Virus record (IMG/VR): IMGVR_UViG_3300029305_006397
DNA length: 64,000 nucleotides
Source of the DNA: a virus
Strand: one strand, 5' to 3'
This document shows positions 18,850 to 59,903 of the stretch, one piece after another (positions within the stretch are counted from its first letter, which is position 1; the number at the start of each line of letters is the position of its first letter). The position numbers and the translations under genes were made by a program. The notes beneath the pieces were generated by a model. That model was not told the origin of the DNA and searched no databases. It saw only the letters and a list, made by a program, of their open reading frames with translations.

Positions 18850-19234
18850 ACAGCAGAGAAGTTTAAACCTTGTGTTTTTTTAATGCGGAGCTAACGGGAC
18901 ATTGTTTCAGCTCAGGCATTTCTTCGTAACACATTACTCCTACTTCCAAAGGATGCACTTTAAGACCGTATGTCTTGCTGCTGCGCAGAGGTAGCATTTC
19001 CTCCGCTTGAACACTTTCGCAGTTCCCGGCACTAGACACTTTCGTAGTCTCCAACGCCATCGTTTGTATGCTCAATTTACTTTTACCCAGTAGCGAACTG
19101 GAGAAGGCTGAACCACCTGGCTATAAATACAACAATGGTCTAAGCGTTAGGCAGACGGTCAAGAATCTGCCCCACGGAATCGTACCGTGCCACCTGCGGT
19201 AAATAAGACGCAGGATCGAACCTCGCTTTTAGGA

Positions 19235-21316: not shown

Positions 21317-21402
21317 TGGTGAATACAATTGGATTCGAACCAATGCTCGACGACTGAGCCAAAGGCATGGGCCGTCCGTGCTAACCGCTACACCATATAT
21401 TC
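21317..21402 (-). tRNA. atypical 86-nt tRNA-like gene, expanded anticodon arm, isotype unassigned
   Basis: acceptor GAATATA/TGTATTC, D-arm GTGTAGCGGTTAGCAC, T-arm ATTGGTTCGAATCCAAT, ACCA end; about 13 extra nt in the anticodon arm. Confidence 0.45.
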
Positions 21403-21627: not shown

Positions 21628-21878
21628 ATATGTAATGCCCCTGGTTGTATTAAATACATATGCATATGGATAGCTACGTCCCGCGAAGGAGTATTCGCGT
21701 GTATGCCTGACTTAAATCACGGACTCCAATTGTATTACTATGTGACGCATACTTTCGTTTTTATCCGCTATCTGGACGGGGCAGGTTAAGCGATAACCTA
21801 TGCCTTTCGACAACCCAGCCTCTAATAAGAGGCTGACGCTCATGGCCTAATGTCCTGTTTCAACTCGCCATGACGAGC

Positions 21879-22729: not shown

Positions 22730-23905
22730 TCAAGCTTCTGCTTTAAAATTATAGATGGGTTTAAAACGATCTACGATATCTACGGTTGGGCCAATGCAAT
22801 TAATAATTTCCTGATAATCCTTGTAAACAAAAGGAGCTTCATCCAAGGTTGATTCATTAATGCATGTGGAATATATGCCATTCATAGTTTCGGCATATTC
22901 TTCTACGGTAAATATCTTCTTTGCCTGTGCGCGAGAATACAGGCGACCAGCTCCATGAGGAGCAGAACAATTCCATTCGGTATTGCCCTTTCCTCTGCAG
23001 ATCAAAAGACCATCACGCATATTAAGAGGAATTACAAGAAACTGACCTTGCTGCGCAGAGATTGCGCCTTTGCGCAAAATCATTTCTTTCACATTGATAT
23101 AATTATGTACACTATCAATGCAATAATCGATTTCACCACCCATAGCAGATACGATTGTATGCAACATTATCCATCTATTCTGTTCAGCAAATTCCTGTAG
23201 AATTGCAACGTCATGAAGATAATCATCCATGTCCTGTCCGGTAAGATAACAAAGATCGGGATCAATTGCGATATGATGTTCAGACAGCCATTGCTGGCGC
23301 ATAACAGGTTCAATAAACTGCAGTTGCTCCATGCGCAAATTATAGTTGTATTTCTTTATGCGATTTACGGCGAGGTTCTGGTAGTATTGAGCCACTTTCA
23401 GGCCGATATTGCGACTGCCTGAATGAACAGCGATATATCCATTTTCATACGCTTCGATGAAATGGTTCCCACCTCCAAGAGTTCCAAGGGTACACTTTGC
23501 CCTTTCCTGGGTCGCTTTATCCAATTTGTCCCAGCACCGCAATTCTTCGAAATCTCGTTCCCATACCTTCTCAGTCGAATGTACATCCATACCAAACGGA
23601 ATACTAGATCGGATAGCGGCGTCCAATTCATCAAGGCGAGAATCAAAATCAATATTGGTTTGTACAAGTGATACACCACAACCGATATCTACGCCAACCA
23701 AATTCGGGCATACCTTATCCGTGATATGCATAGTAGTACCGATTACACAGCCAGCTCCGGCATGGGCATCCGGCATGATTCGAATATGTGCGTCCTTACC
23801 CAAAGGAGAATCCGCCATCTTTTTAATTTGATCGATAGCTTGATCCTCAATTGTCTTAGCATAAATGACGACATCATCACCATGGGTAGACTTATATATT
23901 TTCAC
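22730..23905 (-). CDS. rtcB: RtcB RNA 3'-phosphate/2',3'-cyclic phosphate ligase
   Basis: PDAHAGAG, GGGNHFIE, HSGSRNIG, HNY and HGAGR motifs; GTG start with AAGGTGA SD. Confidence 0.9.
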   Translation of the reverse strand: MKIYKSTHGDDVVIYAKTIEDQAIDQIKKMADSPLGKDAHIRIMPDAHAGAGCVIGTTMHITDKVCPNLVGVDIGCGVSLVQTNIDFDSRLDELDAAIRSSIPFGMDVHSTEKVWERDFEELRCWDKLDKATQERAKCTLGTLGGGNHFIEAYENGYIAVHSGSRNIGLKVAQYYQNLAVNRIKKYNYNLRMEQLQFIEPVMRQQWLSEHHIAIDPDLCYLTGQDMDDYLHDVAILQEFAEQNRWIMLHTIVSAMGGEIDYCIDSVHNYINVKEMILRKGAISAQQGQFLVIPLNMRDGLLICRGKGNTEWNCSAPHGAGRLYSRAQAKKIFTVEEYAETMNGIYSTCINESTLDEAPFVYKDYQEIINCIGPTVDIVDRFKPIYNFKAEA

Positions 23906-44831: not shown

Positions 44832-45076
44832 AAGATTCTTCCTCCTATCTTTTGATAACGGATTCATGGGAGCGTTAGCGATACACCTTTATAACCGGAT
44901 GGGCAAGGCCGCTATTCTGTGATTCTTAATCTACTCTTCAGGTTAAACCCTTATGTTACCATCGGTTCCCAATCATTTAAGGCCATCCCAGGTCTTGATT
45001 CGCCTCCGTCTATCTTTCAGCGCACCCACTACTTTAGATATGTGGTGTGTAGCTTTAACCAGCCGAAGCTGGCCTA

Positions 45077-45361
45077 TCAGCGTTTGCGCTCATAAGGTTC
45101 GTACCCTTCCATGTCCCATTTTCCATCGAACAACTCTCCGTTAAGCCATCCTTCGGAGTCGAAGTAGTTGACGCGCAGCCAACCATTTTCCTGATAGGTT
45201 TTGACAATAATTTCGTCCGGGCGGACACTCATTGTAACCAACTCTCCGTTTTCATTGTGGCCGATAAAATCAGAGTCAGAGTCACCATACTCTGCCATAA
45301 TCTGTTTGCGAACCTCGACTTCGCCAAATCGTGCGGACAGTTCATTGGGAATGCTTTTCAT
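45077..45361 (-). CDS. hypothetical protein
   Basis: start at MKSIPNE (ATG 45361) with GGAGG SD. Confidence 0.55.
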   Translation of the reverse strand: MKSIPNELSARFGEVEVRKQIMAEYGDSDSDFIGHNENGELVTMSVRPDEIIVKTYQENGWLRVNYFDSEGWLNGELFDGKWDMEGYEPYERKR

Positions 45362-45647
45362 AAGAACCTCCTTGTTTTTCCATCTCGGCAATCATTGCAG
45401 CTTTCATCATGCTTTTAGCCGTTTCGTTAATAACGCTTAAGACACGATCTCCATACAAGTAATAGTAGTCAAACCGATCAAAGCTCTTATGGTATTCGCC
45501 CATCGGTTCGACAAGCTCTCCATCCTTGTTTTTTATTGTGCCGAAGCTGCATAGGAACCGATTGTCATTTATCCAATAGCCGACCAAACTTCCATCAAAC
45601 GCCCTCCCATCTGCGCTGGTTACGAGTGCGCCAGCGTACAAATTCAC
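45342..45647 (-). CDS. hypothetical protein (GTG start in track, uncertain)
   Basis: tiled minus-strand ORF. Confidence 0.45.
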   Translation of the reverse strand: MNLYAGALVTSADGRAFDGSLVGYWINDNRFLCSFGTIKNKDGELVEPMGEYHKSFDRFDYYYLYGDRVLSVINETAKSMMKAAMIAEMEKQGGSYEKHSQ

Positions 45648-46014: not shown

Positions 46015-46063
46015 ACCTTCCTTCTTTTCTTTTAGCATATCGGATACTTTGGATTTTCCGATG

Positions 46064-46098
46064 TAGCATTAAAGAATCAGGAGAGGCTTTCGCCTCTC
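46064..46098 (-). terminator. possible intrinsic terminator
   Basis: GGAGAGGC-GAAA-GCCUCUCC hairpin then UGAUUCUUUAAU on minus strand. Confidence 0.4.
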
Positions 46099-46124
46099 CC
46101 TATCTCCCATCTGCGTTTATGCTG

Positions 46125-46460: not shown

Positions 46461-46498
46461 GTGATTTTCCATCCTTTCTTTTCTTGCAGGTGTGGCTT

Positions 46499-46588
46499 CC
46501 TACGACACAAGCGGAAGGAAAGATAGGAAGGAAGAAAACCTTCCGCTTGTCATTTCGGCTGGTTGCCGTCCAGCTCTCGTCAGGTAGG
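46499..46588 (-). ncRNA. hammerhead ribozyme, type I (HH-5)
   Basis: minus strand CCUAC-CUGACGA-G..stem II..C-GAAA-12-bp stem III-GUC/GUAGG; predicted cleavage between 46504 and 46503; UGA stop of 46580..46786 lies inside the CUGACGA core. Confidence 0.8.
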
Positions 46589-47022: not shown

Positions 47023-47089
47023 TCCACGACACAGCCGGAATTTTCCGACTATGTTTCGACCGGGCATCACCCGGTTCTCGTCAGGTGGA
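47023..47089 (-). ncRNA. hammerhead ribozyme, type I (HH-4)
   Basis: UCCAC-CUGACGA-G(A)ACCGGG-UGAUG-CCCGGUC-GAAA-CAUAGUCGG-AAAAUU-CCGGCUGUGUC/GUGGA; predicted cleavage between 47028 and 47027. Confidence 0.85.
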
Positions 47090-47263: not shown

Positions 47264-47479
47264 CTAACCATCATTCCATGCGTAATCGTACCAGAGGGAA
47301 ATCACATCGTTTTCCGGCTCAAAAGGCGTATCATCAAACGACAGGGCATTCAGACCTTCATCCTTAAGCCGCTGCATTGCCATCGTTTCCAGCTCCTCGT
47401 TGGATTTTCCGACTGCATCTTCGTCGTCAATGTATACCTTATAGAAACGCTTTACCTCAGCCATGATAGCTACTGCCAT
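47264..47479 (-). CDS. hypothetical acidic protein
   Basis: conserved leader GGAAAGATAGGAGGAAAC upstream. Confidence 0.55.
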   Translation of the reverse strand: MAVAIMAEVKRFYKVYIDDEDAVGKSNEELETMAMQRLKDEGLNALSFDDTPFEPENDVISLWYDYAWNDG

Positions 47480-47575
47480 AAGTGTTTCCTCCTATCTTTC
47501 CTTATGCGTTTGGCTTTAGGGGCTTGTGACCTTATGCCTTGCCGCATTAACAGGGCTTATGCCCTGCCACTCTGC

Positions 47576-47761
47576 TTAATCTCGATTGGAAAGCTCCGTG
47601 TGATAGATATGCACACTCTGAAGGCGTCTGCTTCCAAATTTCCGTCGAAATTCCTCTTTCGCATCTTTCATGTTTGCCTTGCTACCGTTTCGATGATCGC
47701 TTACATACTCAAATTCTCCGTAATCGTGACCATCATCATAAAGCGCAATGTAGTTTTTCAT
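47576..47761 (-). CDS. hypothetical protein
   Basis: tiled minus-strand ORF, no motif. Confidence 0.55.
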   Translation of the reverse strand: MKNYIALYDDGHDYGEFEYVSDHRNGSKANMKDAKEEFRRKFGSRRLQSVHIYHTELSNRD

Positions 47762-48274: not shown

Positions 48275-48342
48275 CCCACGACGCTCTCAGGATTTTCCAT
48301 CAAGCGTTTCGGTTGCTAACCGGGCAGCCATCATCAGGTGGG
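48275..48342 (-). ncRNA. hammerhead ribozyme, type I (HH-3)
   Basis: CCCAC-CUGAUGA-U-stem II-GAAA-CGCU..AGCGUC/GUGGG; predicted cleavage between 48280 and 48279; stem II pairing less regular. Confidence 0.7.
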
Positions 48343-48949: not shown

Positions 48950-49015
48950 CCCACGACAGGCCAGCTCAAGGCCAGCCTGTTTCGGCTCGTTGTCAACTCG
49001 CCATCGTCAGGTGGG
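48950..49015 (-). ncRNA. hammerhead ribozyme, type I (HH-2)
   Basis: CCCAC-CUGACGA-U-GGC(GA)GUU-GAC-AAC(GA)GCC-GAAA-CAGGCUGGCC..GGCCUGUC/GUGGG; predicted cleavage between 48955 and 48954. Confidence 0.75.
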
Positions 49016-49482: not shown

Positions 49483-49589
49483 TGTAAAATTCCCCTTCCT
49501 ATCTTTCCAAATGATTGACAGGAAGGGGCAAACTATGATATATTTCTGTATAGGAAGGGCGGAAGGAAATTCCCTCCACCCCCATGCGG

Positions 49590-49673
49590 TTAGATTTCGT
49601 CCGGGTTATCCGTGGCGCGAATAATCCCATCAGACCACATCCAGCCGTATTTAGTCCGATACAGGGCTTTCAT
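49590..49673 (-). CDS. possible 27-aa micro-protein
   Basis: own translation MKALYRTKYGWMWSDGIIRATDNPDEI; leader AAAGATAGGAAGGAGG upstream. Confidence 0.3.
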   Translation of the reverse strand: MKALYRTKYGWMWSDGIIRATDNPDEI

Positions 49674-49699
49674 GGCGGTTGTCCTCCTTCCTATCTTTT

Positions 49700-49734
49700 T
49701 ATAAAAAGCGGTCTTGTGTTGGTAGCACAAGGCC
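49700..49734 (-). terminator. possible intrinsic terminator or attenuator
   Basis: GGCCUUGUG-CUACCAA-CACAAGACC then GCUUUUUAU on minus strand. Confidence 0.4.
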
Positions 49735-49958
49735 GTTTTTATCTTTTAAAGCCGTTTTTTCTACGATACGGCAAAACGCTTGACCCATGCTATATGGGAA
49801 TGAATCGGGGTTCAAGGGATTGCCCCGGTCGCCTCCAGCCGTGTTCTTACATGCCGCTGGACACAGGTAGCCTGCATAATCATCTCATTCTCCGGCTACA
49901 GAGTTTTGCGCGGTTTCGATAGACGCACATTTATTGGCGGTTGCTATCGGGAATGGTT

Positions 49959-50020
49959 AACCCAGACCAGCCCATGTGGGCGTGGTTTCGTCGCAATTTT
50001 CAGCGACTCGTCAGTGGGTT
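49959..50020 (-). ncRNA. hammerhead ribozyme, type I (HH-1)
   Basis: AACCCA-CUGACGA-GUCGC-UGAAAAUU-GCGAC-GAAA-CCA(C)GCCC-ACAU-GGGCUGGUC/UGGGUU; predicted cleavage between 49965 and 49964; overlaps stop of 50011..50208. Confidence 0.85.
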
Positions 50021-50230: not shown

Positions 50231-50298
50231 CCATACCCACGCCCCGGCAGGGCGTGACGCTCACGGCTTAAATGGCTTTTTATAGTCGCCGTGACGAC
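50231..50298 (-). ncRNA. pistol ribozyme (P-2)
   Basis: GUCG-UCACGGC-GAC-UAUAAAAAG-CCAU-UUAA-GCCGUGA-GCG-UCACGCCC-UGCCG-GGGCGUGG-GU-AUGG; loop/GCCGUGA pseudoknot and CCAU/AUGG helix; predicted G/U cleavage between 50236 and 50235. Confidence 0.75.
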
Positions 50299-50610
50299 TC
50301 AGACAATTATGCAGCGTTTGAACGGATTTTCGCAGGGGTCGCAACCGAAACCGAAATTTTCTCCGTATATATCGATATACTGAAGTCCAGCGAATTTGCC
50401 GTTCTGAATGGTTTTTAACTCCATTGTAGCGCGGCGCATAGCCTGTTTTGCCTGTTTAATGGTTACGTCGTCGATATTGTAGAATCTGTTTAGCTTGTTT
50501 TGAATTTTATTCAAGAAATTCATTGCAAGGTCATTTGTAACATTCTTTTTATCGGACTCCATGAAACAGTCAAACCCGTATGCACGAAGATAAAAACCCT
50601 GTTTTTTCAT
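50299..50610 (-). CDS. hypothetical protein
   Basis: stop abuts pistol P-2. Confidence 0.55.
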   Translation of the reverse strand: MKKQGFYLRAYGFDCFMESDKKNVTNDLAMNFLNKIQNKLNRFYNIDDVTIKQAKQAMRRATMELKTIQNGKFAGLQYIDIYGENFGFGCDPCENPFKRCIIV

Positions 50611-50633: not shown

Positions 50634-50698
50634 TTGAACCCGCCCCAAACGGGGCGACGCTTTGGGCCTAATCAACTATTTAAAGTCGCCCAAACGAC
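50634..50698 (-). ncRNA. pistol ribozyme (P-1)
   Basis: GUCG-UUUGGGC-GAC-UUUAAAUAG-UUGA-UUAG-GCCCAAA-GCG-UCGCCCC-GUUU-GGGGCGG-GU-UCAA, near-identical in layout to the published pistol consensus; predicted G/U cleavage between 50639 and 50638. Confidence 0.85.
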
Positions 50699-50955
50699 TA
50701 AACGCGCATTACATTGTCAAGATAAATGCGCATTGCACCCTTACGAATATATGCCCGACCTGCCGTCGAATAGTGGACTTTATGACGATGAAAACCCACA
50801 TATCCTTCAGGGTTAACCCATGCCGCAATATAATCGCATTCGAATTTATCGCCGTCGTCGGGTTCCCAAAGTGCAACGCCGAAACAGTTGGAAAAATGGC
50901 AAACGCCAACCGGGGCAATATTAGAATAACGCTTGTAAAGTGCTACATTTTTCAT
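50698..50955 (-). CDS. hypothetical protein
   Basis: stop codon G is the first nt of pistol P-1. Confidence 0.55.
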   Translation of the reverse strand: MKNVALYKRYSNIAPVGVCHFSNCFGVALWEPDDGDKFECDYIAAWVNPEGYVGFHRHKVHYSTAGRAYIRKGAMRIYLDNVMRV

Positions 50956-50989
50956 TGTGTTTTACCTTCCCTCTTTTTTTTAGGTTATT

Positions 50990-51044
50990 CACCCGACGCC
51001 CGGCAGGGCGTTTCGTCTTAATTTTCAAAGACTCTTCAGGGGCG
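50990..51044 (-). ncRNA. hammerhead ribozyme, type I (HH-6)
   Basis: CGCCC-CUGAAGA-GUCUU-UGAAAAUU-AAGAC-GAAA-CGCCC-UGCC-GGGCGUC/GGGUG; predicted cleavage between 50995 and 50994. Confidence 0.9.
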
Positions 51045-51047
51045 TTA

Positions 51048-54589: not shown

Positions 54590-54648
54590 TCTAAAATTCT
54601 CAGACTAAGTAAGGATGAATGAAATGGGTAAATAAAGAAGGTGTTTGT

Positions 54649-57534
54649 ATGCCTCTGGATAAGCAAATTCAAATTATCTCGACTGATACTGCGGGATTCT
54701 ACAGCAACCATGAGGCAAGGTTGCATTTGAAAAATCATAAACTTCGAAGCGAAAGAAAAATACTTAAAAAAGGCGGAGTCGTTAAAAGAGCAAATGGAGA
54801 CAAACGGATCGTTATTGGTTTAGATGAAATTGAAAATAAGCTTGCCGTATTTGGTATTTACTCTACTGACATAGAAGACATCATAAACGAACGCTTTAAT
54901 TTTGACGACTATACCTTAGAGGATATAGGCGAAATTAAGCATTTGATTTCCGATTACAACTTGAAAAAGAAGCTAATTGAAATCAAGAACGCTGCAATCA
55001 GCGAAAGCAAAGAGCAGCTTTTGAAGCTCTTGGCGAATAAAGTCCAGGAGAACGTAAGCTCAAATGGAAGGCATCATACGAGGTACTTGAGAGAGAATAG
55101 CGTTGTAAACAGTAATATCATTTCGGTATTTGATTCGTCCTTTACGAGAATGATCGGAGCAAAGGAAAATGAATTATGCGAAGATTTTATGGTGATTCAG
55201 GTATTTTACTTTGATGTATTGAAAGATATTCTGTATCATGGGTATACATACAAGGGCGAGAAATATATTTATTTTACTTCATCTGCCGGACAGATCAGGA
55301 CAAAAAAAGCGGTTTTTGTAAAAGAAAAAATCTGGAACGAGCATGAGCGTACAATTATGTGTGGATTAACGCTTGACGAGATAAATCGCAAGGGAGGTAA
55401 CAATCCCAATAAGCATCTGGCTTATATGGCTTTGAGCAATTCAGCCACTGATTTGTGGCCTGAGTTCGATATTGATAAAGCCATTGTAATCGATGATTTT
55501 GAAACCAATGTATTTGGAACCTACGATCTCGTGGATGATGCGGACTATACTATTACCAGGGTTTCAGATTTTGTTCCTATATCTCATACAGATGGCGCTG
55601 GTATGATACTCCCCTGTGCCTTTGGAAAGACCCAGAAAAATAAAATGGTTCGATTACCGTGGATTAAAGGATTGCTTGGCGTTTTTGATTTTAGGAAGTT
55701 TATAATTGATCAAGGAGCTTCGCCAGTAATTCGAGATATTTACGGAAAAGAACACAATTTGATTTCCGAAGATATCCAGGTAGTTTTCACCAAATCTCAG
55801 CATAAAATGTGGAAATACTATAACTCCTGGAACGAATATAAAGCGGCTTATAAGAAATATGGTTGTACTGCCGGATATACCAATGAAGAAGAGTTGAATA
55901 TTCCTAATGCGTCCATCAACTATCAAATGCTTCAAACACTGACGGATATTACTCCGGAAGAGATTTTAAAAATTGCAAATAAATCTATTGGCTGTTTGGA
56001 AAATATGACGAGCAGTATAGATAACATTCGAGCAGCATTTGGTGGAGCAAATTATAATCAGGATAAGAGTAGTTTGAACAAAGCATTAGATTTATACCCT
56101 GATCTATTAAACGATGATTGGATTAAGAGAACCCTCCGGGCAATTCGCGATAGCTTGATCAAGGATTATAAAGCTGGAAAATTGAGAGTGCGAGGCAAAT
56201 ACACATTCTTACTCCCTGATTTTTATGCTGCATGCCAATATTGGTTCCTTGGGATCGAGGAACCGGAAGGGCTTTTGCAAGATGGAGAGGTATTTTGTTG
56301 GTTATTTCCTGAAAGCGAAAAATTAGATTGCTTGCGAAGTCCTCATTTATATCGCGAACATCCTATTCGCAGGAATGTCGCATGGATAGGTTATAAAGAA
56401 AGACAAGCCAAGATCAGAGAATGGTTTGGTACAAACGCAGTTTATACGAGCTGCCATGATTTGATCAGCAAGATTTTGCAGTTTGATGTTGACGGAGATA
56501 AGAGTCTGGTGGTGGCAGATAAAACTATTATTGACGTTGCAGAGCGTAATATGCAAGGAATTGTTCCTTTGTATTATAACATGCGTAAAGCTTCTCCAGT
56601 GCAATTGAATAACGAAACGATCTATAACGGGTTGAACGCAGCATTTGTTGGCGGTAATATTGGAATATACAGCAATAATATTTCAAAGATTTGGAATAGT
56701 GAAGTTTTCATAAGCGGCAGCAATGAAGAACGTCGGGAAGCATTGGATATTATTAAGTTGCTTTGTATGGAAAATAATTTCGTTATCGATTATGCCAAAA
56801 CTCTGTATAAACCAGAACGCCCTAAGCACATTCACGAAAGAATCCTGGCCTTTACAAGAAATAAGCTTCCTCATTTTTTCGTTTATGCTAAAGACAAGCT
56901 GGACGATCAAGTGGAAAAACGCAATGGCAGTTTCGTAAATCAGTTGGATGATATAATACCTGTCCCCAGGTTCCATTTCAAAAAACTTGGTTTAGAAAAA
57001 GTTGAACATAGGTTTTTAATGCATGATTCAAATTGCACTGCAAGAGTAGCTTTTACAGATTCGGGTAAAATCATTTCAGAAGAGACAGACCCTTTAATTT
57101 TGGCGTACCATGCATTAAATAAAAAATATTTTTTGGACTTGGGAGAAGTATTACAGGTGAACTATTGCAATACTGAGTTGATATCAATATACGCTAAAAA
57201 TGGTGCTCTTGCCAAGAAGCAGCAAATGATCGAAGAAACGAAAAGCATTCTATCTGAATTTGGATATAATCAAAATCAAATTGTAGATATTTTAGTCGAT
57301 TATGTGTATGGGAAAAATAGGTCGAATGCAAAAGCACTGCTATGGCTTTGCTATGGCGATTCGATTTATAAGAATATGCTACAATATTTAATTCCGGATT
57401 TTAAGACGATACAGTGCGTAGATTGCGATGCATTATTTTCTGTTTCTGCTAAAAATCAATATGCATGCCGTTGTCCAGAATGTGCTAAAAAGCAGAAAAA
57501 GGCCGAAAGGCAATTAAAAAAGATGCTGTCTTAA
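54649..57534 (+). CDS. YonO-like single-subunit RNA polymerase (two-barrel, RdRP-related family)
   Basis: FTSSAGQIRTKKAVF, LRSPHLYREHP and metal-binding QFDVDGDKSLVV motifs in the order seen in YonO and cellular RdRP-type polymerases; start placed at ATG 54649 (track start 54619). Confidence 0.65.
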   Translation: MPLDKQIQIISTDTAGFYSNHEARLHLKNHKLRSERKILKKGGVVKRANGDKRIVIGLDEIENKLAVFGIYSTDIEDIINERFNFDDYTLEDIGEIKHLISDYNLKKKLIEIKNAAISESKEQLLKLLANKVQENVSSNGRHHTRYLRENSVVNSNIISVFDSSFTRMIGAKENELCEDFMVIQVFYFDVLKDILYHGYTYKGEKYIYFTSSAGQIRTKKAVFVKEKIWNEHERTIMCGLTLDEINRKGGNNPNKHLAYMALSNSATDLWPEFDIDKAIVIDDFETNVFGTYDLVDDADYTITRVSDFVPISHTDGAGMILPCAFGKTQKNKMVRLPWIKGLLGVFDFRKFIIDQGASPVIRDIYGKEHNLISEDIQVVFTKSQHKMWKYYNSWNEYKAAYKKYGCTAGYTNEEELNIPNASINYQMLQTLTDITPEEILKIANKSIGCLENMTSSIDNIRAAFGGANYNQDKSSLNKALDLYPDLLNDDWIKRTLRAIRDSLIKDYKAGKLRVRGKYTFLLPDFYAACQYWFLGIEEPEGLLQDGEVFCWLFPESEKLDCLRSPHLYREHPIRRNVAWIGYKERQAKIREWFGTNAVYTSCHDLISKILQFDVDGDKSLVVADKTIIDVAERNMQGIVPLYYNMRKASPVQLNNETIYNGLNAAFVGGNIGIYSNNISKIWNSEVFISGSNEERREALDIIKLLCMENNFVIDYAKTLYKPERPKHIHERILAFTRNKLPHFFVYAKDKLDDQVEKRNGSFVNQLDDIIPVPRFHFKKLGLEKVEHRFLMHDSNCTARVAFTDSGKIISEETDPLILAYHALNKKYFLDLGEVLQVNYCNTELISIYAKNGALAKKQQMIEETKSILSEFGYNQNQIVDILVDYVYGKNRSNAKALLWLCYGDSIYKNMLQYLIPDFKTIQCVDCDALFSVSAKNQYACRCPECAKKQKKAERQLKKMLS

Positions 57535-59570: not shown

Positions 59571-59903
59571 TTATGTTATCTATTTCCCAACATACTGTCA
59601 TGCGTGGGTGGAATAAGAAGAGACGGGCGTTTTCGGTCGGCATAAACCGAAGTTTGGCATTTGAGGTCAAATGAGTTTGATGAATGCAATCCCGTGCTGC
59701 TATGCGGTATTTGCAGGAGAACAACAGGGGTTTGCGTATAACCACAAGGCAGCTAGGTACAATCCGAAAGAAAAACGGTTATAAAGGGCGTCCCGCCACC
59801 TATATCCCAAGTGTGGAACGATAAAGCAGGTGTTTCGCTGCCTATAAATGCGAAATTTAATCAGCTCCGTGTTGGATATTTTGACATGCGGAGCATTTTA
59901 TAT

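Follow-up and report, generated by a model that had tools for sequence, protein, structure and literature searches.

A predicted type-P5 twister ribozyme between two small genes of an SPbeta-like phage operon that also carries hammerheads and pistols

What occupies the 96-nt gap at 47480..47575 of the window (the whole stretch of 64,000 nt analysed here), between the minus-strand ORFs 47576..47761 and 47264..47479, is the question raised by this locus. The first-pass annotation described a structured RNA in a ribozyme-equivalent position that could not be fitted to a known layout, and proposed either a different or new self-cleaving class or a protein-binding site. The position of the gap and its start at the stop codon agree with the sequence and the ORF list, and the minus-strand sequence quoted by the annotation is correct. 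Both flanking ORFs are called genes on 11 independent metagenome contigs, and a protein identical to that of the upstream ORF (P0001) occurs on contigs of up to 146 kb. The gap passes from stop codon to ribozyme, Shine-Dalgarno and start codon, with the following features, all on the minus strand.

47576..47761: upstream ORF, 186 nt, 61 aa, no Pfam family
47576..47578: UAA stop codon of the upstream ORF
47512..47576: predicted complete type-P5 twister, 65 nt, 5′-AGCAGAGUGGCAGGGCAUAAGCCCUGUUAAUGCGGCAAGGCAUAAGGUCACAAGCCCCUAAAGCC-3′ (RF02684 and model R1)
47480..47511: 5′ leader of the downstream gene
47488..47499: conserved AAAGAUAGGAGG in the leader
47488..47492: Shine-Dalgarno GGAGG, followed by an 8-nt spacer and AUG 47477..47479
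47264..47479: downstream ORF, 216 nt, 71 aa, no Pfam family

The leader had been called conserved, and the counts support this: the window has 7 copies of AAAGAUAGGAGG at up to one mismatch where 0.31 would be expected; 6 copies are on the minus strand, and 5 of these lie just upstream of start codons after long gaps. An ordinary terminator or attenuator had been named by the annotation as the outcome that would speak against its reading; no terminator-like site (GC-rich hairpin plus U-run) was found in 47480..47575, where the hairpin P1 (below) is followed by UAAUGCGG with no U-run on its 3′ side. Between 43 and 53 kb, promoter-like matches are no commoner than chance predicts. Given this and the lack of a terminator in the gap, the two flanking ORFs are most likely co-transcribed and share one transcript.

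The annotation had also recommended a covariance-model search over the ribozyme classes, and this search returned Twister-P5. In a default Rfam scan of the whole window, RF02684 (Twister-P5, clan CL00120) matches 47517..47576 on the minus strand with 50.9 bits (E 1.2e-7; curated cut-off 37.6 bits), and does so over its full length (model positions 1-58 of 58). Type-P5 twisters were in addition gathered by pattern from IMG/VR and JGI metagenomes, and a covariance model (R1) was built from 46 phage and metagenome twisters (alignment A3), without any window sequence. With filters off, the best match of R1 in all 64 kb is 47512..47576 (58.2 bits, E 1.4e-13). Among the matches listed for 47400..47700 at E up to 10, a list that omits one weaker match from the same clan, Twister-P5 is the only ribozyme; hammerhead, pistol, twister-sister, hatchet and HDV-like models have no listed match in this interval. 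These results agree with the annotation in that the gap holds no hammerhead or pistol core by Rfam and does not fit twister-sister, hatchet or HDV-like layouts. They contradict its statement that the element does not fit twister, and are consistent with its broader expectation of a structured, probably self-cleaving RNA. The stretch 47512..47576 is assigned by model match to the type-P5 twister ribozymes, and the gap element is one further instance of an RNA class already known, described in 2014 (Roth et al. 2014, cited through the review PMC5408937). Routine annotation with Rfam would find it, and the instance itself matters little. Twister permutations are named after the stem that is left open (PMC5408937), and this circular permutation is probably why the earlier reading missed the twister: it places the 5′ end of the RNA in the 3′ strand of P2 and closes P1 into a hairpin.

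By the published definition, a twister has three essential stems and the pseudoknots T1 (L1-L4, three Watson-Crick pairs) and T2 (GC/GC), with ~10 nucleotides in L1 and L4 that are >97% conserved and a U-A scissile dinucleotide beside P1 (PMC5408937). In the alignment the window element follows the order P2 3′ strand, T1, P1 hairpin, cleavage site, P2 5′ strand, T2 and P4, and ends at P5. Its parts, again all on the minus strand, are as follows.

47573..47575: P2 3′ strand GCA, pairing with UGC 47544..47546 (cmscan alignment)
47571..47572: L1, G47572 and A47571
47568..47570: T1 pseudoknot 5′ strand GUG, pairing with CAC 47526..47528 in L4 (read from sequence)
47550..47567: P1 hairpin, GCAGGGC 47561..47567 with GCCCUGU 47550..47556, loop AUAA, 7 bp
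47548..47549: predicted scissile bond U47549^A47548, then A47547, a U^AA context between P1 and P2
47544..47546: P2 5′ strand UGC (cmscan alignment)
47541..47542: T2 pseudoknot, L2 strand GC, pairing with GC 47522..47523 in L4
47518..47532: inner P4 and L4, AGG 47530..47532 with CCU 47518..47520 (cmscan alignment)
47521..47529: L4, UCACAAGC plus one extra C
47512..47538: extended two-part P4, outer GGC 47536..47538 with GCC 47512..47514 around an AUA/AAA internal loop (RNAfold MFE)

The hairpin CAGGGC-AUAA-GCCCUG reported by the annotation exists and is the twister P1, which is backed by the cmscan alignment, by RNAfold and by covarying P1 pairs in an alignment of 77 phage type-P5 twisters, window included (A1). 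Its second hairpin, AUGC-GGCAAG-GCAU, can be drawn and is not part of the functional fold, in which AUGC is the P2 5′ strand and GCAU belongs to the extended P4. The stems comprise 7 bp in P1, 3 bp plus one mismatch in P2, and 3 bp plus a 3-bp outer helix in P4. The twister begins with A47576, which is also the final base of the upstream stop codon, and the fourth consensus P2 pair is a mismatch of A47576 with G43, as it is in 10 of the 77 sequences of A1. The cut position was set by alignment to the Rfam consensus ...ggUAAUGCgGCA together with the family definition of a U-A site beside P1 (PMC5408937). T2 was assigned from the sequence by comparison with the published fold (PMC5408937) and is invariant in A1; G47543-C47521 is a possible third pair. 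In L4 the bases UC-CAAGC are present, and G47523 of AAGC is the conserved catalytic-site G. All upper-case positions of the RF02684 consensus are matched except one inner P4 pair, where A-U replaces C-G, a compensated change. The P5 helix is optional in the family (PMC5408937), and no complementarity of the flanks was seen by eye for 47512..47576; its lack is explained by the stop codon, which abuts P2. A CUAUC/GAUAG pairing in the MFE was considered as P5 and rejected as weak and without support elsewhere. The nested part of the active fold amounts to -19.8 kcal/mol compared with -23.0 for the pseudoknot-free MFE and is thus the less stable of the two, and RNAfold also shows P2 and T2 in competition with an AUGCG/CGCAU pairing that involves the leader.

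As covariance models leave pseudoknots unscored, the pseudoknots provide an independent check on the assignment. Among 100 unique phage type-P5 twisters, chosen by match to the type-P5 core pattern, the middle pair of T1 is U-A in 89, G-C in 7, A-U in 2, C-G in 1 and U-G in 1, so that it is complementary in all 100, with four Watson-Crick types and one wobble. The GUG/CAC of the window, compared with GgG/CcC in the Rfam consensus, is the commonest phage form. In A1, the full structure, pseudoknots included, pairs 93.6% of cells versus 27-41% when the partners are slid by 1-3 columns, and the covariation score is 0.331 versus 0.072 in shuffles; T1 is paired in 100% of cells and the P1, P2 and P4 columns in 82-97%, although the core columns were fixed by the search pattern, which leaves P1, P4 and the middle pair of T1 as the informative part.

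With RF02684 members the window element shares P1, P2 and P4, the T1/T2 double pseudoknot, the U^AA context, the conserved L1 and L4 bases, the termini at the P5 position, and a phage-borne, intergenic setting beside hammerhead and pistol ribozymes. It differs in having no P5 helix, an A at position 1, a U-A middle pair in T1, an extra C after AAGC, and a P4 extended by the AUA/AAA loop and 3-bp outer helix; all of these differences are minor and all are found in other members. The extra C in L4 (also in L040, L041, L046 and others), the A at position 1 and the two-part P4 can each be found in further phage twisters, such as L041, L046 and L071. The two-part P4 takes the form GCGG-AUA-CGG...CCG-AUA-CCGC in L041 and GGGC-AUA-CGG...CCG-AAA-GCCC in L071, L072, L092 and L094. 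These five IMG/VR twisters share with the window the core GCAGAGUG...UAAUGCGGCA, the AUA internal loop, the outer helix and an 8-nt segment between GCA and GGUC, whereas the sequences of P1 and of the outer helix differ and the contigs come from unrelated phages. The type-P5 twister begins 1-2 nt after a stop triplet in 41 of 92 unique phage cases, and other phage type-P5 twisters have a Shine-Dalgarno and ATG within 10-40 nt downstream; the arrangement of stop codon, ribozyme, Shine-Dalgarno and start codon seen here is the usual one for the group.

Collecting homologous gaps, as the annotation had also advised, was partly successful, in that 11 contigs were found which are near-identical to one another in the gap. 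The gap sequence is identical in nine, and the other two (L011 and L012) come from a diverged lineage, with 62 mismatches over 883 aligned nt in L011 (92.5% identity to the window) and 57 over 806 in L012 (92.3%). In these two contigs 15 substitutions fall in the 186-nt upstream ORF, whose protein is 90% identical, and 18 in the 216-nt downstream ORF, compared with 0 in the 96-nt gap, whose one change is the loss of a single A at 47503, in the leader. At ~8% divergence a stretch free of substitutions has a probability of ~3e-4 over 96 nt and ~4e-3 over the 65 nt of the ribozyme, a simple arithmetic estimate from one diverged lineage. This points to purifying selection on the gap, whose flanks have diverged by 7-8%. 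As the gap is identical in the 11 contigs bar one deletion, covariation was taken from the wider family. A megablast of 5 kb against cultured phages gave no match, nor did an exact-sequence scan of IMG/VR and of GTDB genomes. A search with the flanking proteins gave one distant locus (L001), in which Rfam has no match at E up to 1.

The annotation had placed the gap in the same context as ribozyme-bearing gaps nearby, which holds, as Rfam pistols and complete hammerhead cores are found in neighbouring gaps. The hammerheads were predicted by a core-motif scan and folding.

50634..50699: pistol (Rfam)
50231..50299: pistol (Rfam)
About 51045..50985, minus strand: predicted hammerhead (core ~51039)
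About 50020..49960, minus strand: predicted hammerhead (core ~50014)
About 49015..48950, minus strand: predicted hammerhead (core ~49010)
About 48342..48275, minus strand: predicted hammerhead (core ~48337)
About 47089..47023, minus strand: predicted hammerhead (core ~47084)
About 46588..46490, minus strand: predicted hammerhead (core ~46583)

Each of the six hammerheads is intergenic and is composed of CUGANGA, stem II, GAAA, stem III, GUC^ and stem I, with its ends in stem I. The Rfam hammerhead models stay below threshold, with ~18-26 bits at ~51039 and ~50014 and nothing at the other four, which may be due to long stem III inserts. Together with the divergent twisters described below, at least 11 predicted self-cleaving ribozymes of three classes lie in a stretch of small genes of ~6.5 kb (45.0-51.1 kb), and nearly all long intergenic gaps there hold one. 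The twister shares with its hammerhead and pistol neighbours the position between stop codon and Shine-Dalgarno leader, the strand and the expected chemistry, whereas the folds are unrelated. Hammerheads and pistols would cut near their 3′ end and leave nearly the whole ribozyme on the upstream fragment, whereas a type-P5 twister would be cut in its middle, with the P4/L4 half left on the downstream mRNA. The locus is therefore a compact natural example of twister, hammerhead and pistol in equivalent positions of one SPbeta-like phage operon, and this operon could serve as a direct test of the purpose of phage ribozymes. In other phage contigs (L018, L033, L042, L260 and others) 2-3 type-P5 twisters occur within 1-5 kb, and multi-twister contigs often also carry pistols (L257-L259), so that ribozyme arrays between small genes appear to be a recurrent phage feature and not one specific to the window. 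Within the array, the hammerhead at ~50014 is followed on the minus strand by a 528-nt gap (49483..50010) with a predicted structure of -185 kcal/mol, a strong two-way terminator-like hairpin at 49704..49740 and a possible mini-ORF of 27-46 aa at 49590..49730; this gap may be the boundary between two transcription units.

These observations lead us to regard 47512..47576 as very probably a self-cleaving twister of type P5 carried within a polycistronic phage transcript, as judged from its sequence and relatives. The transcript would fold into P1, P2 and the two-part P4 and be locked by T1 (GUG/CAC) and T2 (GC/GC). Self-cleavage would occur co-transcriptionally between U47549 and A47548 by internal transesterification. 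The 5′ product would contain the upstream cistron(s) and end 27 nt after the stop codon with the P1 hairpin and a 2′,3′-cyclic phosphate; the 3′ product would start with a 5′-hydroxyl at A47548, have the P4 hairpin close to this end, and contain the Shine-Dalgarno leader and the downstream gene. End-dependent RNases would be expected to act poorly on both new ends, one with a hairpin and a cyclic phosphate and the other with a 5′-hydroxyl and a hairpin. Family membership and sequence conservation are read directly from the data, and from them we infer that the element is catalytic. The ribozyme would most likely cut the multi-gene phage mRNA between the two small genes, presumably so that the resulting pieces of the operon mRNA can each have a separate stability or translation. 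For bacterial hammerhead and twister ribozymes, a part in processing polycistronic transcripts has been put forward but not proven (PMC6765202), and ribozymes of these two classes lie in clusters close to phage genes and to one another (PMC6765202, PMC4604425, PMC5408937). Cleavage as a switch for exposure of the Shine-Dalgarno was considered and rejected: its unpaired probability in silico is 0.53-0.58 in the precursor (0.06 at one of five precursor lengths) and 0.60 after cleavage. As the predicted accessibility is essentially unchanged, there is no sign of a translational switch.

The element has weak points, as P2 has three pairs only, with A opposite G at position 1, and the inner P4 likewise three. 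With the extra C in L4, the alternative pairings that compete with the active fold and the fact that many computationally predicted ribozymes fail in assays (PMC8782182), these could point to a degenerate or inactive relic, in which the fold is kept as a stabilising or protein-binding structure and cleavage is lost. We consider such a relic quite improbable, since the conserved core bases, both pseudoknots and the U^AA site are all intact, the unusual features recur in other phage twisters, and the gap has remained free of substitutions despite the divergence of its flanks. A protein that recognises three GCAUAAG repeats, or an ordinary terminator or attenuator, is highly improbable. The local clustering noted by the annotation is real, as three such words lie within 62 nt (47556-62, 47531-37 and 47501-07), and P1 is a GC-rich hairpin, as a terminator would require. 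However, the window as a whole shows no enrichment of GCAUAAG, with 9 copies where 8.6 would be expected. The three words belong to unrelated parts (P1 loop, P4 internal loop and ribosome-binding leader), and the third is not conserved, reading GCAUAGG in L011 and L012; a terminator is further contradicted by the missing U-run after P1 and by the lack of any terminator-like site in the gap. These points speak against the protein-binding site suggested earlier. To a different or new self-cleaving class we give next to no credence, as nothing speaks for it beyond the failed fit to known layouts, and the full-length Twister-P5 match above threshold, the 58.2 bits of R1 and the fitting pseudoknots rule it out.

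A further alternative concerns the use of the ends and not the cut itself: the twister would cleave, and its ends would serve a phage RtcB ligase in religation, circularisation or exchange of RNA segments. The window encodes such an enzyme beside an array of 12 tRNA genes, and a pistol lies between genes of this array.

22730..23905, minus strand: RtcB-type RNA ligase (phrog_1075, E 3e-127)
21809..21878: pistol between tRNA genes of the 12-tRNA array

Every ribozyme in the window would make RtcB-substrate ends, and at least 11 ribozymes lie within 6.5 kb. RtcB joins 2′,3′-cyclic phosphate and 5′-hydroxyl ends, exactly those made by ribozymes (PMC4787814). Against a role at this locus, the gene is 24 kb away, beside the tRNA array, a setting for which tRNA repair is the established explanation, and no complementary guide or splint for ligation was seen. 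We judge this use of the twister ends to be improbable, a shade more so than the inactive relic. A broader proposal, that ribozyme cleavage and phage-encoded ligation together form a deliberate cut-and-rejoin or end-protection system for RNA and not passive trimming of mRNA, is unlikely but deserves a somewhat better chance. The preferred reading is thus a twister that processes the operon mRNA.

Downstream of the twister, R1 gives its second and third matches in two other long gaps, at 46038..46115 (15.9 bits, E ~0.015) and 45041..45082 (12.4 bits, E ~0.13), and Rfam has no ribozyme on the coding strand at 46034..46123 or 45019..45090. We assign these two regions to a divergent type-P5 twister subfamily that is supported by covariation and missed by Rfam.

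46034..46123, minus strand: divergent type-P5 twister, predicted cut U46071^A46070
45019..45090, minus strand: second divergent type-P5 twister, predicted cut U45057^A45056

The layout of the former is AGCAUAaac-GCA-GA-UGG-(long interrupted P1)-U^AA-UGC-U-AC-AUCGGA-AA-A|UCCAAAGU|A-UCCGAU-AUGCU; the latter overlaps the last 14 nt of the ORF 45077..45391, with the UGA stop inside GCUGA. By eye both have a closed P5 (AGCAUA/UAUGCU in 46034..46123 and AGCGCA/UGCGCU in 45019..45090), P2 is GCA/UGC and GCU/AGC, respectively, and T1 is UGG/CCA and UAG/CUA; P5, P2 and T1 of the 45019..45090 copy are all compensatory relative to the copy at 46.1 kb. In both, T2 is AC/GU compared with GC/GC in canonical twisters, and the G-C pair on either side of L4, which has been described as all but invariant, gives way to A..A. 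A pattern scan of IMG/VR gave 24 further unique members (26 with the two window copies), and more occur in Lachnospiraceae, Ruminococcus and Clostridia MAGs (gut Firmicutes). In an alignment of 23 sequences (A4), 99.4% of cells are paired versus 21-46% with the partners slid, and in 10 of 16 pairs both bases have changed, with P1 and P4 as the only independent evidence, as the set was filtered on variable T1 and P2 pairs. Rfam gives members of the subfamily ≤23.5 bits, whereas a milder variant (UGG/CCA and AC/GU with a normal G-C flank) is recognised at 40-55 bits. The rest of the gap at 45 kb (44832..45018, ~185 nt) lies beside the second divergent twister and has no element assigned.

The host of this array is an SPbeta-like phage of gut Firmicutes, judging by its protein matches. 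A 971-aa protein (54619..57534, plus strand) is 40-46% identical to proteins of Clostridium phage D-1873, Psychrobacillus phage Perkons and Bacillus SPbeta/phi3T, and its 39 matching records, which include Enterocloster and Thomasclavelia phages, place the window in this group. The protein, annotated as an RNA-dependent RNA polymerase in one record, is one that we take to be a YonO-type single-subunit RNA polymerase. The window also encodes an integrase, an exonuclease and a Sak4-like protein. In addition, two orphan structured RNAs, RAGATH-36 (73.2 bits, 19031..19192, minus strand) and drum (62.1 bits, 59675..59782, plus strand), adjoin the two tRNA arrays of 12 and 10 genes, and ARAGORN reports a 'tRNA-??? 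(ca)' with an odd two-base anticodon loop at 21317..21402 on the minus strand.
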